Assembly: GCA_031409955.1 (NCBI GenBank)
Contig: JANNYF010000012.1
Coordinates: forward strand, 25,927-89,926
Length of the DNA stretch: 64,000 nucleotides
Source: Blastocatellia bacterium
GTDB taxonomy: Bacteria > Acidobacteriota > Blastocatellia > RBC074
Direction of reading: 5' to 3'
Shown here: positions 12,683-56,960 of the stretch, piece after piece
Layout of the letters: each line of letters begins with the position of its first letter
Numbering within the stretch: the first letter of the stretch is position 1
Position numbers and translations under genes: made by a program
Notes under the pieces: model-generated
What the model was told of the DNA's origin: nothing
Databases searched by the model: none
What the model saw: only the letters and a program-made list of their open reading frames with translations

Positions 12683-13401
12683 ATTGGAAATCTGCCGCCG
12701 CCGCCGCCAAAGATTTGCACCCGCTTTCACTCTCCTGGGCCTGGTTCCGTAATAATGTGAAGGAAAATGGGCGGCTGACCTTGATGTCATTGGGCGTCGC
12801 GTATTTGTTTTTCGTGGTTTCGCGGCAGCCCGACCGGGACATTATGGTGGCGGGAGTCCCCTTGGAATTTACGAGCATTCCCGCCGGGTTAGAAATCAGC
12901 AGCGAGGTTCCCTCGACGGTCAATGTTCGCTTGCACGGCCCGCGCGATCTGGTGCAGGGGATCACCGCCAACGAATTAGAAGTCAAAGCCACTTTGGGCA
13001 ACAAAACTGCGGGCGAGCGCGTCATTCAACTCAAAGCCTCTGACGTGATCCTGCCGGACAAAGTTGAAGTCCGACGGATTGAACCGCCCGCCATCGAACT
13101 TAAACTCGAACCGACGCGGCGCAAAATTGTGCCTATCGAAACGCAATTCGTCGGGGTTGTCGCGGAAGGCTTTGAGCGAAGCCGGACGCAGTTGGAACCC
13201 GCCACGGTTCAGATCGAAGGCCCCGACTCGCGCGTGTCACAAGTGACCAAAATTTTGACCGAGAGCATTCCATTGGGAGACAAACGCGCCAGCTTTCAAT
13301 TGCAAGTTGATCTCGAACCTGGCAAGTCCGGCGTGCGCATCGTGCATGTGGCACCGATCAAGGTGGTGGTGGAAATCGCTGCCAAAAAGAATATCGAGTA
13401 G
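12679..13401 (+). CDS. cdaR: CdaA regulatory protein CdaR (YbbR-like domains)
   Basis: GTG start overlaps the cdaA stop in a GTGA arrangement. TM anchor plus YbbR-like repeats. Canonical cdaA-cdaR gene order. Confidence 0.7.
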   Translation: MNWKSAAAAAKDLHPLSLSWAWFRNNVKENGRLTLMSLGVAYLFFVVSRQPDRDIMVAGVPLEFTSIPAGLEISSEVPSTVNVRLHGPRDLVQGITANELEVKATLGNKTAGERVIQLKASDVILPDKVEVRRIEPPAIELKLEPTRRKIVPIETQFVGVVAEGFERSRTQLEPATVQIEGPDSRVSQVTKILTESIPLGDKRASFQLQVDLEPGKSGVRIVHVAPIKVVVEIAAKKNIE

Positions 13402-13473
13402 GTTGACAATCCCAAAGGCACTCCGTAAGATGGCGGCTCGCTGTAATCCCGAATAGTACAGCACTTCGGAATG

Positions 13474-13552
<79 letters not shown>

Positions 13553-13565
13553 TTATTTCAAGCAG

Positions 13566-13600
13566 TGAAGGCTTCCAATTGGAAGCCTTTTGCTTTTGCA
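13566..13600 (+). terminator. Rho-independent terminator after tRNA-Pro
   Basis: Perfect palindrome gaaggcttccaattggaagcctt followed by ttgcttttgc. Confidence 0.6.
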
Positions 13601-13691
13601 TAAACGCTATCCACAGATTCTCGCCCCCAGAAATTTCATACCTTCGCCGCATACGTTTTTCATACATATTCCGTCAGGATGAGGTAGACGC

Positions 13692-14570
13692 TTAATTGAG
13701 TTCGACCAACTCAATCGCCACCATATCTGGCCCTTCAATCAGGGCTGCCCGCATTTGGCTTTTGCCGAAGCGATGCGGTTCTTCCAGGATTTTCACGCCT
13801 TCTTTCCGCAATCGTTCCAGCGTGGCGTTGAGGTTGGGGACGCTGAGGGCAATGTGATCTACCACGTGTCCACGTGAGCTGACAAGCGCTTCAGGACGTT
13901 GGCGGGGGTAGATAATCAGACTGACTTCGCCAAATCGAATGGTGGTGGCTGGCGAGCGAATTACGCCGAGCGGTTCGCTTGGCGCGGCGAAAGGGACTTC
14001 GCACGCGCCTGTGCGTTGTGCGCGGCTCGTTGCGCCGAGATGTTTGATATACCAATCAGCAGCGCAGAGCGGCGCGGCGCTGACTAAATGGACGTGCAGA
14101 AACGCGCGCGTGTTGGCTGTATTGATTTCAACCAGAGCGTTGTCCGGCGCTTTCAGATAGGCGAAGAGCAAGTTGGCATTCAAGCGCGTCAGTGGCGTGG
14201 CAAAGGTGATGCCGTTGGCGAGATGCTTTTGATAATCGCTCTCCATCGCCGTACTGCCCCAGCCAAAATGCCAGATCGCGCTGTCCAATGAAGCGATGGG
14301 GGGCTTGCTCACTTGATTGAAGAGCAAGTGCATTTTTTCGCTTTGCACGCTCTCCCAGCCTGCTAGTGACGCTTTCTTCGTTACATCAAAAGTTTTTGTA
14401 TAGAAATCAATCGCGGCGGGCGGATTGGTGGAATTCAAGTGAACGTGATGGAAGCCAATGGGCGCAGGCGTTTCCTGCGCCTTTGCGATAAAGACGATAA
14501 GAATTGCCACAATGAGGCAAGGAAGAAATGGGAAGCCGTACGATAGACAATCCTTCCACTGCTTTTTCAT
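13692..14570 (-). CDS. Secreted two-domain VOC (glyoxalase/bleomycin-resistance/extradiol dioxygenase superfamily) protein
   Basis: Signal peptide, then two VOC-like halves (FHHVHLNSTNP..., HVVDHIALSVPNLNATLERLRKEGVKILEEP). Start taken at MKKQWKD. Confidence 0.6.
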   Translation of the reverse strand: MKKQWKDCLSYGFPFLPCLIVAILIVFIAKAQETPAPIGFHHVHLNSTNPPAAIDFYTKTFDVTKKASLAGWESVQSEKMHLLFNQVSKPPIASLDSAIWHFGWGSTAMESDYQKHLANGITFATPLTRLNANLLFAYLKAPDNALVEINTANTRAFLHVHLVSAAPLCAADWYIKHLGATSRAQRTGACEVPFAAPSEPLGVIRSPATTIRFGEVSLIIYPRQRPEALVSSRGHVVDHIALSVPNLNATLERLRKEGVKILEEPHRFGKSQMRAALIEGPDMVAIELVELN

Positions 14571-14590
14571 GGAGGTTCTCTTTCTCCGGT

Positions 14591-15139
14591 TCATTCGGCC
14601 TTGCGAAACCACGGATTGCCGAAATTGGTATACGGGCCATTGTCCACGGAAATCTGTACGAGCAAGCGGTAATGAGCGGGAGAGAGCATCAATGTTTTGC
14701 CTTTCAACTTGATCGTTTTGCCGTTTTTCTTGAGCGGCTCTGTTTCCCAGAAAATTGTGTAATACCCGCCGAGGTCGCCGCCAATTGGGCCGACTTTTTT
14801 CAGCACTAAATTACCGAACAGCCCGGTTTCAGACCGTGTGACCTGTTTCTGTTTCTCGTTGTAATCGGTAGTCGCGCGGCCTTTGAGGATGCCGCTCGGC
14901 CCTTCGCCTTCGATGATGCTTTCGTATTTTCCGTCGGCAATTTTCTTGTAGGTTTCTTTGCCCTTGAGCTTGCCTGCCGGGCCAAGTGGAGATTCAGGTA
15001 CGTTCCATTCAAACGTCCACGCGCCCACAAAGTAATCCATGTTTGGCGGTGGCGTTTGGTCAGTCGGCTCGGTTGGACGCGACGGTTGTTGCGGTGCTTG
15101 TTGGAATAATAACAAGGCTAAAATCAGGGCTTTAATCAT
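14591..15139 (-). CDS. Secreted hypothetical protein (DUF1579-like)
   Basis: Signal peptide [12 protein letters not shown], a Pro/Thr-rich linker and a roughly 140-aa beta-rich domain. Family assignment tentative. Confidence 0.5.
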
Positions 15140-15147
15140 AGGTTTTA

Positions 15148-15246
15148 GTGGTCGGTGGTCGGTGGCCGGTGGCTGGTGATCCGTTGTTGGTTATTAGTTG
15201 CAAAGGGAACCCATTGCTGACCACCGACCACCGTCCACCGACCACC
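15148..15246. repeat. Family C hairpin repeat built of GGTCGGTGG units (imperfect long inverted repeat)
   Basis: gtggtcggtggtcggtggccggtggctggtga ... tgaccaccgaccaccgtccaccgaccacc. A second member lies at 56880-56960. Confidence 0.5.
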
Positions 15247-15248
15247 AA

Positions 15249-16679
15249 TTATTTGCTCGCGCTCTGCGATGGTTTCGTTAAGACCTTGCTGTCAACGGTG
15301 TACTCAAACCACGGGATAAACATCTCATCCCAACTCTGCTCGCTCCAATAGACTTCCTTGTTGGGCGCGGGATTGTAGCGGTTCTTGATTGAGTTGTCGT
15401 AATGCGCAACCGCCTGAATCCGGCTTCCGGCGGGAATCTTGAGTGGTTCTTTTAGCTCATAATGCAACTGCCAATTGAAATCGAACTTCGGCACATAGAG
15501 CAAAACCTGCTTGCGACCATCCGGCCAAATCAACGTGTATTTGATGTCTTTGCCGCGCAAGTGCATGTGCGGCGCAAAGGCATACAACGTGATCGCTTCT
15601 TTGATCGGTGTTTCGGCGCTGATTTCCCAGTTGTCTACACGGGGCGGAATGTTCGGAATCCTGCCGCGCACTTTGACTTCTTTGCCGTTGACTGTGCGGG
15701 TCTCTGCTAACTCTTTGCCTTCGATGAAAACATTGTCCGTGACGCCTTTGGTCAGTACTTCGTACTTGGGCGGTTGCTTGGCAAACCAAAGCCCTAAACG
15801 CGAGCGATCTTTCTCCGCACGACCACTCGGTTGATAGTGCATATTGAACTGAACGTACATGCCCGGCAGGATGCGTTTCGCCGTACCTGCGGGATGTTTC
15901 TCAAAGCCCTTGCCCGGCGCTTGTCCGACTAACTTGAATGCGCCGGAACGCGTGAACGAATCCTGACTCTGCGCCACTTCGCGTGTTACGCCTTCACTCA
16001 GTCCACCGGTCTCACGGGCGGATTGGCTGTTGAGTGCCGAAGTGGCTCCATCCGCACGAACGGCTCTGCCATTGACGATCTTTGCGCCTTCCGGCAGCCG
16101 CACGACGTTGGCGATGGAGTGATGCACGACGGCTGGATTGCCGGGGCGAAGTTCGACTTTCTCGACCCATCGTTCTTCATTGAAGGGAAGCGGCACATAG
16201 AAGTTTTGCATCGGCAATTCGCCCTCCGCAGGAACTTCAAAATCAATCGGCATTTCGATGACTACATCTGGTTCGCCGAACGTCCAACCGGGCGTGTAAT
16301 TCGGCATCTTGGGCAAGTCTTTGTCATCGCCTTTTGGCGCGCCTGCGTCTACCCAAGTCGTGATGAGCTTGATCTCTTGTTCGGATAAGCGACGGTCGTT
16401 GCTGAAGTGGGCGGTCGAGATGTTTGGATCAGCAAACCACGGCGGCATCGTCCGTTCGACGACTTCTTCGCGGATGGCTTTGCTCCACGGACGCACTTCG
16501 GCATAAGACGTCAGCGGCATCGGCGCGACTTCGCCGGGGCGATGACAGTTGGCGCATTTGTTGAAGATGATGGGCGCAACGTCTTTGGTGAAGGTCACGC
16601 CAGCGGCTTCATTTTTGTTCACGAACCAAATAGTCGCGGCGCTTAGAACTGCGAACAGAATGATGGACAATCGTTTCAT
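15249..16679 (-). CDS. Fusion protein: N-terminal mono-heme cytochrome c domain plus DBH/PHM-like (copper type II monooxygenase-like) domain
   Basis: RBS ggagg precedes ATG at 16679. Signal peptide. CANCH heme-binding motif. Downstream HH...(about 70 aa)...H...(about 66 aa)...HMH...(about 75 aa)...DEMF spacing mirrors the PHM/DBH CuH (H,H,H) and CuM (H-x-H, Met) sites, with a conserved YDFNWQ. Confidence 0.65.
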
Positions 16680-16690
16680 GGCGTACCTCC

Positions 16691-18007
16691 TTAGCGGCTT
16701 GAACTGCTGGCAACTTGCGGCTGCGCTTTGCGCAAATCCTGTTTGTCGAGCGTGTAATCTACATACCCGATCATCATTTCTTCCCACGTCTGATCGCCCC
16801 AACGAACCGTTGCCGTTGGATCAGGATTGAATTTATTTTTCGGCGAATTGTCGTAATGGGCGACACAAATGAGCTTGCTGCCTTTCGGCACGGCGAGTTC
16901 TTCTTTTAGCACATACGTTAACTGCCAGCCAAAATCATAGCGCGGCACCGACAGAATGACTTTCGACGTGCCATCAGGATAGACGAGCGTGTATTTGAAA
17001 TCTTTGCCGCGCACGTGCATGTGTGGATGCAAACTGTCAACGTGGCTGTCTTCTTTGAAGACCATTTCAGAAATGACTTCGTGATTGTCTGCACCGGGCG
17101 GAATGGCAAAACTGCTTTGCACCGCGCCCGCCGTAATGACACGTTTCTGCACGGGTTCTTTGGCGAAGATTAAGCCAATGCTGGTGCGGTCTTTGCCCAC
17201 TTCGCCGTTCGTGGTGTAGTGAATCTGGAAGATCAGCACCGAACCTTTCTTGACGAGTTTGGCTTGACCGTTGCGCAGTTCCAGCGGCGCTTCACCCGGT
17301 GCCCATCCGACCAGACGGCCATCTGAATCGGCGGGACGTTCACTTGAACTTCGACGAACTGAAGCGAGGTCGGCGGGATTGATTTCACCGGGCTTCGGCA
17401 AATCGCCTTGATCCGGGTAACGCACGCTTACGATGACGTGATGCAAATGCGCGCGATCACCCTGTCGAATCTCAGCGAATTGCACATACTTGTCTTCGGT
17501 GAAGTTCGTCGGCACCGCGAAATATTTGTACGGAATGACGCCTGTGACGGGAATGTTGAATTCGGTCGGCATCGTCAGCACGACGTCTGGTTGCCCGATT
17601 TGCCAGCCCGTTGTGTACGTTGGATTGGGCGGCATATCTTTCGGCTCACCTTCTTTCGCGCCGCCCTCAACCCAGGCCACAATCGTATCAATCTCTTTTT
17701 GTGACAGGCGCGCATTGTTGGAAAATTCACCGTGATTGGGATCGGCGAACCACGGCGGCATGACGCGGGAAACGACCTGTTCACGGATGGATCGTGCCCA
17801 CGGGCGCACCTCTTTGTAGTTCATGAAAGACATTGGCGCGACTTCGCCGGGACGATGGCACATCTGGCAATTTTTTTGAATGATCGGTGCCACATCTTTG
17901 GTGAACGTCACAGTTGCGGCAGACGTTTGCCGCAACAAGACAGATGATAATCCGATGCCGAGCATTGCAATCGCGCCCAACACACACAGGAACAAAGTAC
18001 GTTTCAT
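16691..18007 (-). CDS. Fusion protein: cytochrome c domain plus DBH/PHM-like copper monooxygenase-like domain (tandem paralog)
   Basis: CQMCH heme motif. [17 protein letters not shown] and TWEEMM motifs at the same spacing as the downstream paralog. 11-nt gap to the next gene. Confidence 0.65.
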
Positions 18008-18141
18008 ATTGAACCTCTTAAATAATCTGCGAGCAGAGAAACTGAAATCGGAGCCAACAGCATCCGAACTCTAATACCGTCTTCCAGTCAGTGGAAGAAA
18101 AATTTCAATTCAAGACAGCTACGTGCGCCAGATGTGCCAGG

Positions 18142-18576
18142 TTACTTGCTGTCTTTTGACTTTGATCCAAGGCTGCGCAGGAATAGCACAACCTGCCAAA
18201 TTTGCTTGTCGTTCAACTTTTCTTTGTAGGCCAGCATATCCGCCGAAACGCCTTCTTTGACAGCCACAAAGATTTCACCATCGGTTGAACCGTAATCCCA
18301 CGCGTCATCCGTTAAGTCAGAAGGCGTGCCGCCCGACAACGCCATCCCGCCATCGCCTTTGCCATTCGGCCCGTGACACGAAGCGCAATAACGCGCATAA
18401 ACCTTCTTGCCTGCATCAATCGTTTCTGCGTTGCTCGGTTCTGGGTTCTTCAGCTTCTGCGCCTCCGCATTGCGGCGTGGTTCTTGCGATGCGTTCGCCG
18501 CTACTGCAACAAAGATCGCCCCCACCGCCAGCAGCCGACCGACCACCGACCAATTACTATTCCTGTGGTACATCAA
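18142..18576 (-). CDS. Class I c-type cytochrome (soluble/anchored mono-heme)
   Basis: Signal/anchor helix, then [17 protein letters not shown] (CxxCH) and a distal Met-containing segment. Confidence 0.8.
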
Positions 18577-19036
18577 AATTCTCCACTAAATACTCTGGGT
18601 GCATTTCGCGCAGGTACAAGAACAATTCGTGCACCAGATTCACCAGCCGATTCACCCCATACGCGTACTCATCGTTTTTGACCTTGAGCGAGATGGACAC
18701 CGCACCGCGCTGATTTGTACAAGACAACACGGCGCGCGCACGATCAATGCGCCGATGCTCCGGCAATTCGCCAGCGTGTCGCTCCGCCAAAAAGGTTTTC
18801 AATTCGCCGTACAATTCTGAACCCGTCGGAATGCCCGGCAGCAGTTGCTTGAAGCGCAACACCTGCTTTTCTGTATCTGCGATCAATTCCATCTCGCGGC
18901 GTAAGAGCCAAACGAAGGTGAACTGCCCGTTCTTGTCTTCACTGAAGCCGCGAAAGACGCCACGATCTGCGTAGGCTTGTAAACTTTCTCTGACTTCATC
19001 CAGAGGCTTATGGGTTCGTTTGGGAGCCGTTTTCAT
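18557..19036 (-). CDS. Hypothetical protein translationally coupled to doc
   Basis: ATG at 19036 overlaps the doc TGA stop in an ATGA arrangement. No recognisable motif. Confidence 0.45.
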
Positions 19037-19470
19037 ACACCTAACAGATTTTGAAACCAATCAGCTATTTCTGGAATTGTGCGCGGTGACATGTTTTCAC
19101 CGCGTGACTGGCGCAGATTTTCTTCTGCCAGCGAAACGCAGAAATCAATCACATCATTGATCGGTAACTTCTCCGGGATCACGTACCCGCAGTTGTCGAG
19201 AAAAAAGATCGCTGCTGCGAAGGCCGTTCGTTTCGTCCCGTCCATAAATGGATGGCTTTTGACCAGCGAATGAAACAGCGCAGCAGCCTTTTCAAAATCG
19301 GTTTCGTAAAGCTCCTGCCCGCCGAATGCCGCAAAAGGTCGTGCCACCGCCGAATGCCGCATCGTTGCTTCGCGCAATCCTACAATGCCGCCTGTTTCCG
19401 CGATGATGACCTCGTGTATTTCATAGACACGGACGAGTAAATTAGCGACCTCATCGGCATAATCAGTCAT
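19033..19470 (-). CDS. doc: Doc (death-on-curing) / Fic family toxin
   Basis: Fic/Doc signature [15 protein letters not shown]. About 145 aa. Immediately downstream of a small RHH-like gene. Confidence 0.8.
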
Positions 19471-19475
19471 CGGGG

Positions 19476-19697
19476 TTACCGTTGCGCCAGGGTCTCAAAT
19501 AGTTCACGGTTTTGCGTAATTAACTGCCGCACGAACGGGATGGCGCTTTCACTAAAGCGGCTACCGTTTGCTGTCGGTTGCTGCGCCAGCCAGATTTCTA
19601 CGGCAGCGATTGCAACGGCTTCCACATCTTTTTCAGGAATCGCGCGCGTGCGCAATTGTTCGGTCAAGGTTTCAGGTAATTCGATTGTTAGTGTCAT
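19476..19697 (-). CDS. Ribbon-helix-helix/Phd-like antitoxin
   Basis: 73 aa. N-terminal TLTIELPETLTEQLRTRA is RHH-like. 5-nt gap to doc. Confidence 0.55.
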   Translation of the reverse strand: MTLTIELPETLTEQLRTRAIPEKDVEAVAIAAVEIWLAQQPTANGSRFSESAIPFVRQLITQNRELFETLAQR

Positions 19698-19709
19698 GTC
19701 TTTACCCCG

Positions 19710-21653
19710 TCAGTGATTATACGACATGCAACCTGGTTCGACCGTGCCTAAAAAGCCCGGCTCATATTGCTGCCTGACCCAGAATTCTTTCTTCGCCTGA
19801 CAGTTGATGAGCGATGGCCGACTCTCTTTCACCGCGATTTGATAACAGCGTTCCAGCGCCGCGCGGAAATCACCCGGCTGGGTGACGTACTCGCCGTGCG
19901 CGCCGAGTCCTTCCGCGACTTTGTCATAACGCACGTTCTCTTGGAAGAGCTGTAAGCTCAGCGTCACGGGGCTGCGCGCGTTGCCCGTCCACGTGCCCCA
20001 GGCGTTGTTGTTGTAGACGATGACGATGATTGGCAGGCGATACTTCGAAGCGGTTTCGAGTTCCATGATCGTGTAGCCAATGCCCGCATCGCCCGTGACC
20101 GCAATCACTGGCGCGCCTTTGTACGCAGCTTGCGGGCCGATGCCGTGTCGCACCGCTACCGCCGCGCCGATTGCATAGCCGACATCCGGCCCGATATTGC
20201 CGTACTGATAAGCGCCGTTGAGAATCTGGCCCGGACGATAGCCACGCATCCGGCGGCGCACATAACGCGCGATGCCATAGCCGCCTGCGACAAAGGTCGT
20301 CTGTTCTTTGGGCAGCTTGCCATTGTACATAAAGTCAGTCAGCTCTTTGGCAATCACCGCCGGATGCACGGCGTCGGTGTAGCTCAAACCCTTCGCGTAA
20401 TGAGCATCATTCTCGTCCTCGAACTTTTTGCGCGCGGCAGCAATCTCCGCCACCCACGCATCGTGCTGCATTTTGGGCATTGCGTCAGCGAGTGCTTCCA
20501 AGGCGGCCTTTTCGCAACTGACCAGGCCAACATCAATCGGCAGATTACGGCCAATGTCTTCCACGCTGGGATCAATGCGGATGTATTTCGCATCCGGCCC
20601 AAAAGCGAAATCAATCACCGTCGGCATGCAGTACTGACCAACCAACATCACAACATCGGCGCTCGCCAATGCACCCGGCGACGCATTGGCCGAGAGTGGG
20701 CTTGCATCGGAGAATTGCCCTTTCATCGCGCCCGATTCAACCACCGGAATCTGCGCCTTTTCGGCCAGCGCCTTCAGTGCATCCCACGCGCGGCTGTAAA
20801 AGACGCCGTTGCTGGAAACGATGATCGGGCGCTGCGCCTGTTTGAGTAACTCGACCGCCGCCGCGACATCCTTCGGTCCCGGATGCGGCTTCGCAGTGGT
20901 ACGGTAGTGGGTCTTGTCATAGTAGTAATTCAAATCGCTCGCCGTTTTGAAGCTGGCACGCGCAACTTCAGCCGGAAAGTCCAGATGCACTGGGCGCGGA
21001 ATGCCGGAGCGCAACTGCCGAAACGCATACGCGCCATATTCATGCACACGGGCGGGCGTGATCAGACGTTTGCCGTATTTCTTCAAACCTTCGGTGGTTG
21101 GTTGCTGATATGCGAACTGGTTACCCGCCTCAGCGTCCTCTTCCAAGATTGTCTTGTTACTGGCCAGGACCAGCACCGGCGAGCGCGCTGCGTTGGCGGT
21201 GGCAATAGCGTTGATCATATCGGTAAAGCCAGGCCCTTCCGTACCCGAAGCCGCCGCGACCTCGCCCGTCACACGACAGAAGCCATCGGCAGCGGAGCAC
21301 ATCGCGCCTTCGTGCCGACCCGAGTAGGCCGGGACGCCTTCGAGTGCGATGGCGTTTATGATGGGATAATTGCCTGGACAACAGAACAGCGCGGCCAAGC
21401 CTTCTTCCTTGCAGATGCGGGCAAAGACCTGTGCGCCTGACATCGGAAAGGTTGCTTTCACGGGCGGCACGGCAACCGCTTTCGCAAACTCGTCAGGAAC
21501 TTTGATGGCGTTGGTTTCCGCCGCATGGGCTGGCTGATTCACCAGCGTCGCGGCAGCCGTCGCGCCCACGCCCGTCATCGCCTTGCGCATAAATTTTCTG
21601 CGTGAAACATCGGGTGCGGAGTCTTTTCCTGTTGGGTTGGTGATGTCATCCAT
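19710..21653 (-). CDS. Thiamine diphosphate-dependent enzyme (acetolactate synthase/benzoylformate decarboxylase superfamily) with twin-arginine (Tat) signal peptide
   Basis: RBS aggaaa precedes ATG at 21653. [30 protein letters not shown] Tat-type signal. Three-domain ThDP fold with the [15 protein letters not shown]...NN ThDP-binding motif. Confidence 0.8.
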
Positions 21654-21914
21654 AACTATTTTCCTGTTCAAGTACGGAACGAAGTAGGTTCGGCGATTAT
21701 GAATTCGCGTAAGTTGTTCGCAAAACTTCAGAATGTCAGTAACGGTTGTTTTCGGTAGCGCTTGATTGAATGCTTGCCCAGATGAAAATCCGCCCAGAAT
21801 ATACGCCCAACTAAACTACTTTTGCAATGAGTTGCTGACCGTCCGGTAAGCATAGTAGGATTCTCGCTCGTTCACCTTCTGGCGCAAATATTCAATTACT
21901 TACAGGAGACAGTG

Positions 21915-23846
21915 ATGAAGCTACCCCGCAGGTTATTTTTGACAGTCCCGCGAAGCACGTTCACGACCATTGTCATGCTTGTGATTCTTGCGGGCTTCTG
22001 TTGGTATGAGGCCATTGCTCCGGCAGCCGCAAACCTCAACATCAACCCATCTTCATTGAGTAATCTGCCCGCTTTGCAACAAGCCGCTGTCGCCACTTCG
22101 CCCGAAGGCGAGGCCATTTACAAACAACGATGCGCAGTTTGTCACGATAATCCCGGAGATCGGATTCCGCCGCTGTTTCTCATTCGGCGTCGTTATGCTG
22201 AAGACGTCATACAAACTCTCACCAGCGGTTCGATGAAGCAACAGGCGGCGGGGCTGAGCGCGGAGCAGATTAAGGCATTGGCGCTGCACTTGACTGGAAA
22301 GCAGCCGGGGCTACCTTTGCAGTTAAATAACAAAGTCAATCTTTGTGGTGGAACGCCTGTGCAGCTTAACCTCAAAGCGCCAAACTGGAATGGATGGGGG
22401 CGTGATTATGACAACTCGCGCTTTCAGCCGAAGCCGGGCCTCAAAGCCGAAGACGTGCCGCGCCTAAAAGTGAAATGGGCGTGGGCGCATCCGGGGCCAA
22501 TGGCGACAGGGCAGCCGACAATCATCGGAGATCGTTTGTATGTCACGACCGAGATGGGACAGCTTTATTGTCTCAACGCGCAAACAGGTTGCACCTATTG
22601 GACGATGAATGCGGGCGCAACAGTGGTGGCGGCGATGAGTGTTGGTGCCTTGCCCGCCGGATCACCGGCTAAATATGCCGTTTATTTTGGCGATGCGAAA
22701 TCCCAACTCCAAGCGGTGGATGCAATGACCGGCAAACTGTTGTGGAAGACCAAGGTGGAAGATCATTTTCTGGCCCGCATCACAGGCGCACCTGTACTCT
22801 ATCGCAATCGCATTTATGTGCCGGTTTCGTCGTATGAAGAAACGGCTGGACGCGATCCCAAATACGAATGCTGCAAGTTTCGCGGCAGCGTGGTGGCGCT
22901 TAATGCAAACACCGGCAAGATCATCTGGAAAACGTTTACGGTGCAAGAGGAGCCGAAGCCTTTCAAGAAGAATTCAACCGGCACACAAATGTATGGCCCG
23001 GCAGGAGGCGCGATTTGGTCTGCGCCGACACTTGATGTGAAGCGCAATGTTTTGTACGTCGGCACAGGCAATTCGTACACGGATGTTGAGACGGGCCAGA
23101 CCGATGCGATCATGGCGTTTGATCTGACCACCGGCAAAGTGAAATGGACGAATCAACTCACCCCGAAAGACAACTACCTCGTCGGTTGTCGGCAACCCGG
23201 CGTGGGCAATTGTCCGAAAGAAGCTGGCCCCGATTACGATTTCGGCAGTTCGCCCATTTTGCGCACCCTGCCCAACGGCAAGCAGATTCTGATCACAGGG
23301 CAGAAGTCTGGCGCTGTCTACGGCCTTGACCCGGACAACAATGGGAAGAAAATTTGGGAGGCCAAAGTTGGCGGCGGCGGTGCGCTCGGCGGGATCGAAT
23401 GGGGCTTTGCGGCGGACGCGGAAAATGTGTATGTGCCGATGGCCGATGTAGGTGGGCCAAACCGCAAACCCGGGATTACGGCCTTGCAGATTGCGACAGG
23501 TGCAAAACGCTGGTATGTGCCTGCTCCCCCGGCAAAATGCAATTGGGGGACGACCCGTTGCAATAACGCCCAATCCGCCGCCGCGACGCTTATCCCCGGC
23601 GTCGTCTTTTCCGGCACGATGGATGGTCACTTACGCGGATACGCCACCAAAGACGGCACAATCCTTTGGGATTACGACACTGCCGCGCCCATCCAGACAG
23701 TCAACGCCGGTCTGACGAAAGGCGGCACGCTGGATGGTGGCGGGCCAACGGTGGCGAATGGGGTACTGTATACCAATTCCGGCTACGGTCGAATCGTCGG
23801 GCAACCGGGGAATTTGTTGTTGGCCTTTACCGTAGACGGCAAGTAA
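21915..23846 (+). CDS. PQQ-dependent dehydrogenase with N-terminal cytochrome c domain (polyvinyl-alcohol dehydrogenase-like quinohemoprotein)
   Basis: RBS caggagac. N-terminal anchor/signal, CAVCH heme motif, then an 8-bladed PQQ beta-propeller with W/G motifs. N-terminal heme placement matches PVA-DH-type quinohemoproteins. Confidence 0.75.
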
Positions 23847-23868
23847 GCCGTGCGGGCAAAACGAAGCG

Positions 23869-26046
23869 CTACAAATTCTCCAAAATAAATCGCGTCATCA
23901 ACGTGCGCATGTGTTTGACCTGATACGGATCAACGACGCCGTGCCGCGCTTTCGGATAGACCATCAGTTCAAACTGCTTGCCCGCCTTTTGCAATTCGTA
24001 CACAAGCTGAATCGTGTTTTGCATGTGGACATTGTCGTCCATCGTGCCGTGAATCAGCAGCAGTTTGCCGCTCAGGTTTTTCGCGGCTTTGATGACCGAT
24101 GTTTTCGCGTAGCCGTCAGGATTGTTCTGTGGCGTCAGCATATAACGCTCAGTGTAAATCGTGGCGTACAAATTCCAATCCGTCACCGACCCGCCCGCGA
24201 TACCGATTTTGAAAACGTTCGAGTGCGTCATCGCATACGACGTCATAAACCCGCCATAGCTCCAACCGTTCAAGCCAATGCGCGAACCATCTACGAACGG
24301 CAATGATTTCAAGTACGCGACGCCATCTTCCAAATCGCGCAATTCGCCAACGCCTAAGTTTTTATAAGCCGTCCACGTAGATTCCGCACCTTTGCCAGAC
24401 GCGCTGCGATTGTCGCAGACCCAGATGACGTAGCCTTTCTGCGCCAGCATCTGATGCCACATGAAATTTTCACCGTTCCACCGATTCCCGACGCGCTGCG
24501 CATGCGGGCCGCTGTAAGTGAAGCTCCAGACGGGATATTTTTTGTTGGGGTCAAAATCCGGCGGCTTAATCATCATCGCTTCCATCAGAAAGCCGTCACG
24601 GTTTTTGACTTGCAGGAATTCGGGCTGGCTGAGCTTGTATTGTTTCAGCGCCTCCACTTTGTTTTCATCAATCGCGCGTACTAACGAGCCATCGTATTTG
24701 TACAAACGCGCCTGAATCGGCGTTGTGACATCGCTCGATGTATCAATGAAGTGGTTGAAGGTTGGGTCAAAGCTGGCGTTATGTGTGCCTGCGGTTTGGG
24801 TCAATCGTTGCAAACCGGAGCCATCCATCTTGATGCGGTAAGCATCGCTGCCGATGTAGCTGTGTTCCGTGCCGGAAAAATACACCCAGCCATTTTTCTC
24901 ATCCACGCCGTGCAGCGTGCGCGCTTCCCACTTACCCGACGTGATCTGTGACGACAGCTTGCCATCGTTCGAGTAGCGATAAATATGCTTCCATCCATTG
25001 CGCTCGCTTAAAAACAAAAACGTGCCGTCATTCAACCAGCGCGGCAATTCGGTGTCATCGGCTTCGATCCACGCAGGCGTTTGTTCACGAAACAGATTCG
25101 TCGTTTGCCCATTCGCTGGGTCAGCCAAATTCACATCCAGCCATGTCTGTTCGCGGTTTGTGATGTGATAGACAACGCGCGAACTGTCGGGCTTCCAACC
25201 GACGCGTGCGATGATGGCTTGGTCGTTGCTGTATTTCGCAATGTCTACCCATTTGGTATCGCCGCTGCTGATGCTCACAATGCCGAGCTTGACGTTCGGA
25301 TTGGGCTGGCCTGCTTTGGGGTAGTTATACAATTCGACATCTTGTTGATTTGGGATGTGGTCAACGACCGTGAATTCTTTGACAGGCGCTTCATCAAGCT
25401 GTAAATACGCGAGCTTCGATGAATCGGGCGACCACCAATAACTTTTGAAATCGCCACGTCCGTAGACTTCTTCCTGATAAACCCAATCGAGTTTGCCGTT
25501 GAAAAGTTTCGCATTGCCGTCCGTAGTCAGCGCGGTTTCCTGTTGCGTCGCAATGTCCACGACAAACAGATTGAAGTTGCGCACGAACGCCACTTTCTTG
25601 CCGTCGGGACTGAGGTCTTCGTTCTCTTCGGCGTCGCTGGTTTTGGTCAGGCGAAGCACGGTGTCGCTGCCAAATTGGTAGTAATACAAATCGTGCTTGA
25701 CGTTGACGAGTGCCGCATTAAATTTGGCTCTGACTTGCGTCGGGTTGGTGGCGAGACGTTTCGCCTCAGCCGCGGTAATGCCTTCGAGCTTGGTGAGCGC
25801 CGCTTCCATTTTCGCGGCATCATAAAACGGTTCGGCCTTGCCCGTCGCGGCTTCGACCTTCATCAACTGCGTGCCGCGCCGTTCCAGATAATAGTTGCCG
25901 TCAAGCCACGTCATTTGAAAGGTCAGCCGACCGCTGAAATTGACGCGCTTGTCGGGATCGTAAATGTCGTCGAGGGTGAGCAGTTTGTCCTGCGCAAAAA
26001 CGGTGAAGGAAAAAAGCAAGAAGGCAAAGGCCGCGATTCGTCGCAT
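23869..26046 (-). CDS. Dipeptidyl-peptidase IV family serine peptidase (S9B)
   Basis: Signal peptide. DPP-IV N-terminal propeller region plus prolyl oligopeptidase catalytic domain with GWSYGG nucleophile elbow and distal Asp/His. Confidence 0.85.
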   Translation of the reverse strand: MRRIAAFAFLLFSFTVFAQDKLLTLDDIYDPDKRVNFSGRLTFQMTWLDGNYYLERRGTQLMKVEAATGKAEPFYDAAKMEAALTKLEGITAAEAKRLATNPTQVRAKFNAALVNVKHDLYYYQFGSDTVLRLTKTSDAEENEDLSPDGKKVAFVRNFNLFVVDIATQQETALTTDGNAKLFNGKLDWVYQEEVYGRGDFKSYWWSPDSSKLAYLQLDEAPVKEFTVVDHIPNQQDVELYNYPKAGQPNPNVKLGIVSISSGDTKWVDIAKYSNDQAIIARVGWKPDSSRVVYHITNREQTWLDVNLADPANGQTTNLFREQTPAWIEADDTELPRWLNDGTFLFLSERNGWKHIYRYSNDGKLSSQITSGKWEARTLHGVDEKNGWVYFSGTEHSYIGSDAYRIKMDGSGLQRLTQTAGTHNASFDPTFNHFIDTSSDVTTPIQARLYKYDGSLVRAIDENKVEALKQYKLSQPEFLQVKNRDGFLMEAMMIKPPDFDPNKKYPVWSFTYSGPHAQRVGNRWNGENFMWHQMLAQKGYVIWVCDNRSASGKGAESTWTAYKNLGVGELRDLEDGVAYLKSLPFVDGSRIGLNGWSYGGFMTSYAMTHSNVFKIGIAGGSVTDWNLYATIYTERYMLTPQNNPDGYAKTSVIKAAKNLSGKLLLIHGTMDDNVHMQNTIQLVYELQKAGKQFELMVYPKARHGVVDPYQVKHMRTLMTRFILENL

Positions 26047-56879: not shown

Positions 56880-56960
56880 CGGTGGTCGGTGGTTGGTGAT
56901 TGGTGGCTGGTCAGTCTTTTACCGACCGCTAACCACCGACCACCGACCACCATTTCAGGA
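56880..56960. repeat. Family C hairpin repeat (GGTCGGTGG units) between ADOP permease genes
   Basis: ggtggtcggtggttggtgattggtggctggtcag ... ctaaccaccgaccaccgaccacc. Same family as 15148-15246. Confidence 0.5.

Follow-up and report, generated by a model that had tools for sequence, protein, structure and literature searches.

A tandem gene pair from a Blastocatellia bacterium encodes predicted periplasmic haem-c proteins related to the copper monooxygenases PHM and DBH

Two adjacent genes, B and A, are the subject of this analysis. They lie in a stretch of 64,000 nucleotides from a Blastocatellia bacterium of the Acidobacteriota (assembly GCA_031409955.1, contig JANNYF010000012.1, positions 25,927 to 89,926), which is called the window throughout and to which all coordinates refer. 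An earlier note on this DNA had described two adjacent secreted proteins of 476 (A) and 438 (B) residues, and both open reading frames (ORFs) were confirmed (Table 1). The stop codon of B is followed after 11 nt by the start codon of A, which is translationally close-coupled to B. The two proteins are paralogues with 42% identity from end to end (E = 5e-128). Relative to B, protein A contains two insertions, one of about 18 residues in a loop of the N-domain and one of 24 residues ahead of the IPP motif of the C-domain. A further A/B paralogue is not present in the 64-kb window.

Both proteins have a signal peptide ahead of a CxxCH motif. The signal peptides together with the c-type haem attachment place A and B in the periplasm. 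The mono-haem modules of the earlier note, CANCH and CQMCH, are present as C42ANCH46 in A and C47QMCH51 in B. Sequence reading revealed as further motifs M78PPW, E452-M453 and FDFNWQ in A, and M83PPW, E410-M411 and YDFGWQ in B. The motif YDF(N/G)WQ, described as shared, thus holds for B but not for the first residue in A. The proposed copper motifs, HH...H and HxH...M, occur in both proteins with spacings that differ from those given before. The distance from HH to the third His, put at about 70 residues, is 73 in B and, owing to an insertion, 94 in A; that from HxH to Met is 80 residues in A and B alike, not about 75. Outside the CxxCH motif A contains no cysteine, and B has only two unconserved ones, C8 in the signal peptide and C381.

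The relationship of the copper core to peptidylglycine alpha-hydroxylating monooxygenase (PHM) and dopamine beta-hydroxylase (DBH) was revealed by profile and structure comparisons. A profile built from 75 family members matched human DBH with E = 1.8e-8, in an alignment that spans both catalytic domains and places VVHH on LVHHM, QvHY on EVHYH, HmHlRG on HTHLTG and YdfnwQ on YSPHFQ. The residues predicted to form the CuH site, H189/H190/H263 in B and H186/H187/H281 in A, fall on ligand positions of DBH. The family profile was required for this result, as B used as a single-sequence query against the PDB sequences gave chance matches only. A Foldseek match to DBH (PDB 4ZEL) was obtained with E = 4.4e-15, and the two-domain beta-sandwich fold of the PHM type is predicted for A as well as for B. 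PDB searches did not return any solved structure closer than DBH or PHM. The Pfam model Cu2_monoox_C (PF03712) is matched by A with a score of 23.9 and by B with 23.3, only just over the gathering score of 23. The match in B covers residues 319–419, M411 included, and 54 of the 75 relatives match the same model at E < 0.01.

The family to which A and B belong is large. An exhaustive search with clustering at 50% identity gave 17,857 clusters at E ≤ 1e-3 and 3,313 at E ≤ 1e-30. Conservation was scored in the 150 best representatives (39–63% identity to B), wherever the alignment covers the position. CxxCH, MPPW, HH, H263, HxH and EM are invariant or show one exception at most, and the same is true for W361-Q362, D386-N387 and E410. 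W112 and W135 are invariant as well. The His and Met residues named in the earlier note are therefore conserved across homologues, and, judged by these alignments, the motif set of A and B is far beyond chance.

The haem domain accompanies the copper core throughout. Among the representatives with a complete core, 128 of 136 have CxxCH and MPP upstream, and the eight cores which lack the haem motifs look mostly like N-terminal truncations. From CxxCH to MPP the distance is 36 residues in 120 of the 128 proteins, and from MPP to HH it is 104–111 residues. Pfam models for cytochrome c and for Haem_bd gave sub-threshold scores only for A and B; both are exported proteins with CxxCH, a predicted cytochrome fold and a probable distal axial ligand. 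In this family the haem domain is obligate. The haem of A and B is probably His/Met-ligated, in a domain shaped like PccH or Haem_bd.

Three lines of evidence, homology, fold and conserved ligands, support the haem-c/PHM-DBH-like fusion that the earlier note had proposed. A and B are very probably haem-c proteins of PHM/DBH ancestry with two copper sites. From the aligned residues we infer that copper is bound at a CuH site of three His and at a CuM site of two His and one Met.

Orthologues of A and of B form separate series with 70–90% identity in Blastocatellia, and many pairs are found on one contig. At least 599 related stretches emerged from a scan with one genome per species; the top 80 are from records mostly labelled or binned as Acidobacteriota. 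The only organism name among the cluster members listed is Pirellulales, and the taxonomic breadth beyond Acidobacteriota is poorly sampled. Tandem arrays of four to six haem-c/PHM-like paralogues on one strand occur in Blastocatellia and in other Acidobacteriota (loci L021, L022, L024, L025, L031, L042 and L078). Sporadic fusions within the family involve ankyrin repeats, alpha/beta-hydrolases, a GDSL lipase, CBM48, a BlaR1-type M56 anchor and EF-hands.

The statement that this is not a characterised enzyme class held up. No NCBIfam model matched the A/B family, and full-text literature searches, which do not cover many subscription papers, found no publication on bacterial members. Some JGI records are already named, on the basis of Pfam, ‘Copper type II ascorbate-dependent monooxygenase, C-terminal domain’; the similarity to PHM/DBH has thus been caught by automatic annotation, though apparently without being studied. 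Other database names are ‘thiol-disulfide isomerase’ and ‘redoxin domain-containing protein’ (in one Pirellulales metagenome-assembled genome). They derive from a redoxin-like domain which is present in part of the family, and have spread to A-like and B-like proteins without it. If the database names were taken at face value, A and B would simply transfer electrons as cytochromes c or act as thiol-disulfide isomerases, with the beta-sandwich as a PNGase F-related domain for binding and not for catalysis. We regard this as very improbable. Pfam searches revealed no AhpC-TSA, Redoxin or Thioredoxin domain in A or B even at E < 0.1, and neither protein has the thioredoxin-fold domain with CxxC or CxxS which the isomerase or redoxin names would imply.

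Table 1. Features of the haem-c/PHM-like gene pair and of its surroundings in the window
Feature	Position	Strand	Remarks
Gene B	16691-18007	minus	438 aa; signal peptide, mono-haem c domain, PHM/DBH-like two-domain copper core
B haem-attachment motif C47-Q-M-C-H51	17855-17869	minus
B M83PPW motif	17750-17761	minus	invariant; M83 is the probable axial Met
B H189-H190	17438-17443	minus	first two ligands of predicted CuH site
B H263	17219-17221	minus	third ligand of predicted CuH site
B H329-M-H331	17015-17023	minus	predicted CuM histidines
B M411	16775-16777	minus	candidate CuM Met ligand in motif EEM
Gene A	15249-16679	minus	476 aa; paralogue of B; ATG start 8-9 nt after AAGGAGG
A haem-attachment motif C42-A-N-C-H46	16542-16556	minus
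A H186H187	16119-16124	minus	predicted copper ligands, aligned with B
A H281	15837-15839	minus	predicted copper ligand, aligned with B
A H371-M-H373	15561-15569	minus	predicted copper ligands, aligned with B
A M453	15321-15323	minus	predicted copper ligand, aligned with B
VOC (glyoxalase/dioxygenase superfamily) protein	13692-14612	minus	two-domain, secreted; Pfam Glyoxalase 4.3e-17
DUF1579-like protein	14591-15139	minus	182 aa, secreted; nitrobindin/FABP-type beta-barrel
Small class-I cytochrome c	18142-18576	minus	144 aa, periplasmic; CASCH at 18373-18387
u167	18557-19060	minus	167 aa; without family match (Pfam/NCBIfam)
doc (Fic/DOC) toxin with 73-aa upstream ORF	19033-19697	minus	TIGR01550 3.8e-14
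73-aa ORF	19476-19697	minus	likely antitoxin
Thiamine pyrophosphate (TPP)-dependent enzyme	19710-21671	minus	653 aa; twin-arginine signal, predicted periplasmic; Pfam TPP_enzyme_N, _M, _C
Pyrroloquinoline quinone (PQQ)-dependent dehydrogenase	21912-23846	plus, divergent	644 aa; N-terminal cytochrome c domain; PQQ 1.7e-29, Cytochrome_CBB3 2.1e-7

A and B are part of a run of genes for exported proteins, which extends over positions 13692–21671 of the minus strand. The outer flanks are unrelated, with cdaA and ybbR on one side and a DPP-IV peptidase on the other. A promoter and terminator scan of 13400–24000 remained at chance level and was uninformative on operon limits. For comparison, ORFs were called in 83 related loci and scored against the proteins of the window. 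The gene order B→A was found in 14 loci. The gene for the DUF1579-like barrel follows A in 12 of the 12 loci that reach far enough, and 11 of the 14 loci contain the PQQ dehydrogenase. The VOC gene is present in 10 related loci, those of a second PHM-like subgroup included.

In this other subgroup (L015, L016, L017, L019 and L025), a PHM-like gene is followed first by one for a protein of about 505 residues with a Tat-type signal and then by those for a VOC protein and an extended form of the DUF1579-like protein, of about 308 residues. VOC and barrel proteins are thus associated with PHM-like genes beyond the orthologues of A and B as well. Since the DUF1579-like barrel has no conserved His, nitrobindin-type haem binding is unlikely, and the simplest reading is a carrier or presenter of a small ligand.

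The spacer between A and the gene for the DUF1579-like protein (15140–15248) contains a long hairpin, the 28-bp arms of which consist of heptad repeats GGTGGTC/GACCACC (minimum free energy −62.5 kcal/mol, z = −7.8). A 12-mer of this hairpin recurs as an inverted pair at 56881–56951 and has 11 matches in the window, where 0.28 are expected. It looks like a palindromic element of the REP type or a strong terminator.

B→A is an old, fixed unit which has been kept across Blastocatellia. The earlier note took the duplication as a sign of substrate diversification. This is plausible for a family with arrays of four to six copies; the fixed pair found here, however, is at least as consistent with two coupled steps or with a heteromer.

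The dehydrogenase encoded upstream on the opposite strand scores below the cutoffs of all NCBIfam PQQ subfamilies. In two loci, a PQQ dehydrogenase gene is located directly upstream of a single PHM-like gene with gaps of 4 and 22 nt (L034 and L054), and in two others the called ORFs of the two overlap (L027 and L048). Two of these four records are labelled as Vicinamibacteria-type. PQQ dehydrogenase genes beside PHM-like genes occur in more than one lineage of the Acidobacteriota. Their adjacency in the four more distant loci gives the strongest indication of a functional link in this analysis.

The gene for the small cytochrome c is located on the same strand as B, 134 nt upstream of it, and the earlier note called it dedicated to A and B. 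It would then be their own donor in a self-contained system of three genes. The protein matches Pfam Cytochrom_C (8.7e-12) and Cytochrome_CBB3 (1.8e-13). Comparison of the loci connects it with another unit. In all seven related loci which contain this unit (L001, L002, L004, L007–L009 and L014), the genes for the TPP enzyme, a protein of about 155 residues (u167 in the window) and the cytochrome c are contiguous and in fixed order, and the u167 and cytochrome c genes overlap. The cytochrome c gene never occurs there without the TPP enzyme and u167. In five of the loci the unit is directly upstream of B, as expected for a dedicated donor, but in L001 and L009 other genes lie between. The unit was not seen in seven further loci with B→A, several of them on short contigs; about 8 kb are available on both sides in L003, L011 and L013. 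The closest families of the cytochrome are CcoP-type domains and the cytochromes cL and c550, which accept electrons from dehydrogenases. As the unit is fixed in seven loci while its linkage to B is variable, the small cytochrome c is primarily a partner of the TPP enzyme, and its role as dedicated donor of A and B is improbable. It may feed a shared periplasmic cytochrome pool.

No NCBIfam equivalog reached its cutoff for the TPP enzyme. The unit would be an unusual case of a periplasmic thiamine-dependent enzyme coupled to a cytochrome. In the window, a doc toxin gene and a 73-aa ORF separate the TPP enzyme gene from that of u167, and related loci (L001, L002, L007 and others) are empty at this position. 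The two genes appear to be a toxin–antitoxin insertion into the conserved TPP unit.

Taken as a whole, these data lead us to propose, as the probable though by no means assured function, that A and B are periplasmic copper monooxygenases of the PHM/DBH type which depend on cytochromes instead of ascorbate and act with coupled partners. Cytochrome donors are predicted because of the obligate fused haem c and the periplasmic location. The haem of A and B would accept single electrons from periplasmic cytochromes and hand them to CuH, and would thus take the role of ascorbate. CuM would bind and activate O2 and hydroxylate a C–H bond of a substrate that sits in the interdomain cleft. The likeliest electron sources would be the PQQ dehydrogenase with its cytochrome c domain and the Tat-exported TPP enzyme with the small cytochrome c. 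These sources would act by analogy to cellobiose dehydrogenase (CDH) or PQQ pyranose dehydrogenase, which feed lytic polysaccharide monooxygenases (LPMOs). The nitrobindin-like barrel probably serves to bind or present a ligand that is small and perhaps hydrophobic. B and A, as a fixed pair, might catalyse two successive steps or form a heteromer.

Several findings weigh against this proposal. The Pfam match of A and B to Cu2_monoox_C is marginal, and the model for the N-terminal domain, Cu2_monooxygen (PF01082), has no match in A or B and weak ones in 3 of 75 relatives, so that the Pfam comparison suggested by the earlier note came out marginally positive for one of the two copper domains only. 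The HMM (hidden Markov model) alignments end before the Met ligand and provide no residue-level pairing with the Met of DBH or PHM; a profile of the C-domain alone matches DBH weakly (E = 0.25) and again ends before this residue. Equivalence of the Met ligand is proposed because of its invariance, its spacing and the coverage of the Pfam match. Further, most distant loci of the family have no conserved partner gene. Clustering of the neighbouring ORFs did not reveal any universal partner across the 83 loci other than paralogues and antisense shadow ORFs. The link to the dehydrogenase is therefore limited to some clades. Finally, 60 of the 150 representatives have an extra N-terminal domain of about 200 residues which matches AhpC-TSA and Redoxin. 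This fusion hints at thiol or peroxide chemistry outside the monooxygenase model.

The redoxin-like domain and the lack of conserved substrate-pathway genes in most distant loci would also fit a redox or detoxification role of the proteins as periplasmic enzymes for small inorganic or reactive species. They might then reduce O2, H2O2 or superoxide, act as a cytochrome c oxidase or peroxidase, or carry out nitrogen-oxide chemistry, with the PHM scaffold as electron sink. Titles of PDB entries indicate that PHM itself can bind nitrite, azide and CO at CuM. However, the active site of the redoxin-like domain (relatives P0252–P0390) is mostly CPxS or CPxA, without CxxC, and neither the peroxiredoxin motif PxxxTxxC nor WCxxC is found in it. 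A second conserved Cys follows about 125–130 residues on, in a G-C motif just ahead of the haem domain. Possible roles of the domain are a thiol relay, copper handling or peroxide chemistry. It is absent from A and B, and the ligand-binding barrel as constant partner suggests an organic ligand. Arrays of four to six divergent paralogues, as well as the fused esterases, GDSL lipase and CBM48, are more easily explained by diverse organic substrates than by one small molecule. We therefore consider an enzyme for small inorganic species rather unlikely and prefer the cytochrome-fed monooxygenase.

This preferred reading may be extended to the family, though only tentatively, and we would give it somewhat less than even weight. 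The proteins might form a large, unrecognised bacterial class of ascorbate-independent dicopper monooxygenases which are wired by haem to the periplasmic cytochrome c network. In Acidobacteriota they might be coupled to periplasmic PQQ and TPP dehydrogenases, form with them an extracytoplasmic oxidising system similar to LPMO plus CDH, and act on small, possibly hydrophobic organic compounds of the soil, which the nitrobindin-like carrier would deliver.

The textbook examples of non-coupled dicopper monooxygenases are PHM, DBH and tyramine beta-monooxygenase, which in animals obtain their electrons from ascorbate. To our knowledge, work on enzymes of this type has been confined almost entirely to animals. 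PHM, the catalytic core of PAM (1PHM, 1SDW), is only 16–18% identical to A and B; it takes its electrons from ascorbate and lacks a haem domain, whereas A and B have an N-terminal c-type haem domain. The residues R240, Y318 and N316, which we take to bind the peptide carboxylate in PHM, are not recognisably kept in the A/B family. In comparison with PHM the family has invariant motifs of its own, R333-G334, W361-Q362 and D386-N387-S388.

The best profile match is to the group of DBH, tyramine beta-monooxygenase and MOXD1/2 (4ZEL), with which VHH, HY, HxHLxG and YxxxxQ align. Like A and B, DBH has an extra N-terminal domain on its catalytic core. In DBH this is a DOMON domain without haem c, and a C-terminal dimerisation domain is also present, whereas A and B have haem c and no DOMON domain. 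DBH is found in the secretory vesicles of eukaryotes and depends on ascorbate, while A and B belong to the bacterial periplasm.

The systems of LPMO with CDH or PQQ pyranose dehydrogenase are alike in that a secreted copper oxygenase is fed by the cytochrome domain of a dehydrogenase, a link which is suggested here by gene neighbourhood alone. LPMOs, however, have a mononuclear histidine brace and another fold, whereas two separate copper ions are predicted for A and B. The partner systems of fungal LPMOs use haem b; in the setting of A and B it is haem c, which is also found on the copper enzyme itself. Haem domains like that of A and B are known from PccH of Geobacter (4RLR), Haem_bd (PF14376) and the alpha subunit of hydrazine synthase. 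These are free-standing or part of unrelated enzymes, and none is fused to a PHM core.

With no fewer than 17,857 clusters at 50% identity, the family retains both predicted copper sites and has an obligate c-type haem in addition. Should its members be active, they would show how PHM/DBH chemistry runs without ascorbate. The transfer of electrons over the long distance between CuH and CuM is, as far as we know, an open problem in this enzyme class, and active members would offer a natural system for triggering the delivery of electrons to CuH and for tracking it optically via the haem. They would also represent a large unexplored set of periplasmic C–H oxidising enzymes in soil Acidobacteriota and Planctomycetota, in arrays of up to six copies, and would correct a widespread misannotation as ‘cytochrome c’ or ‘thiol-disulfide isomerase’. 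On the basis of sequence, predicted structure and gene neighbourhood, A and B represent a bacterial branch, very large and as yet uncharacterised, of a classic family of copper enzymes, with a predicted built-in entry point for electrons.

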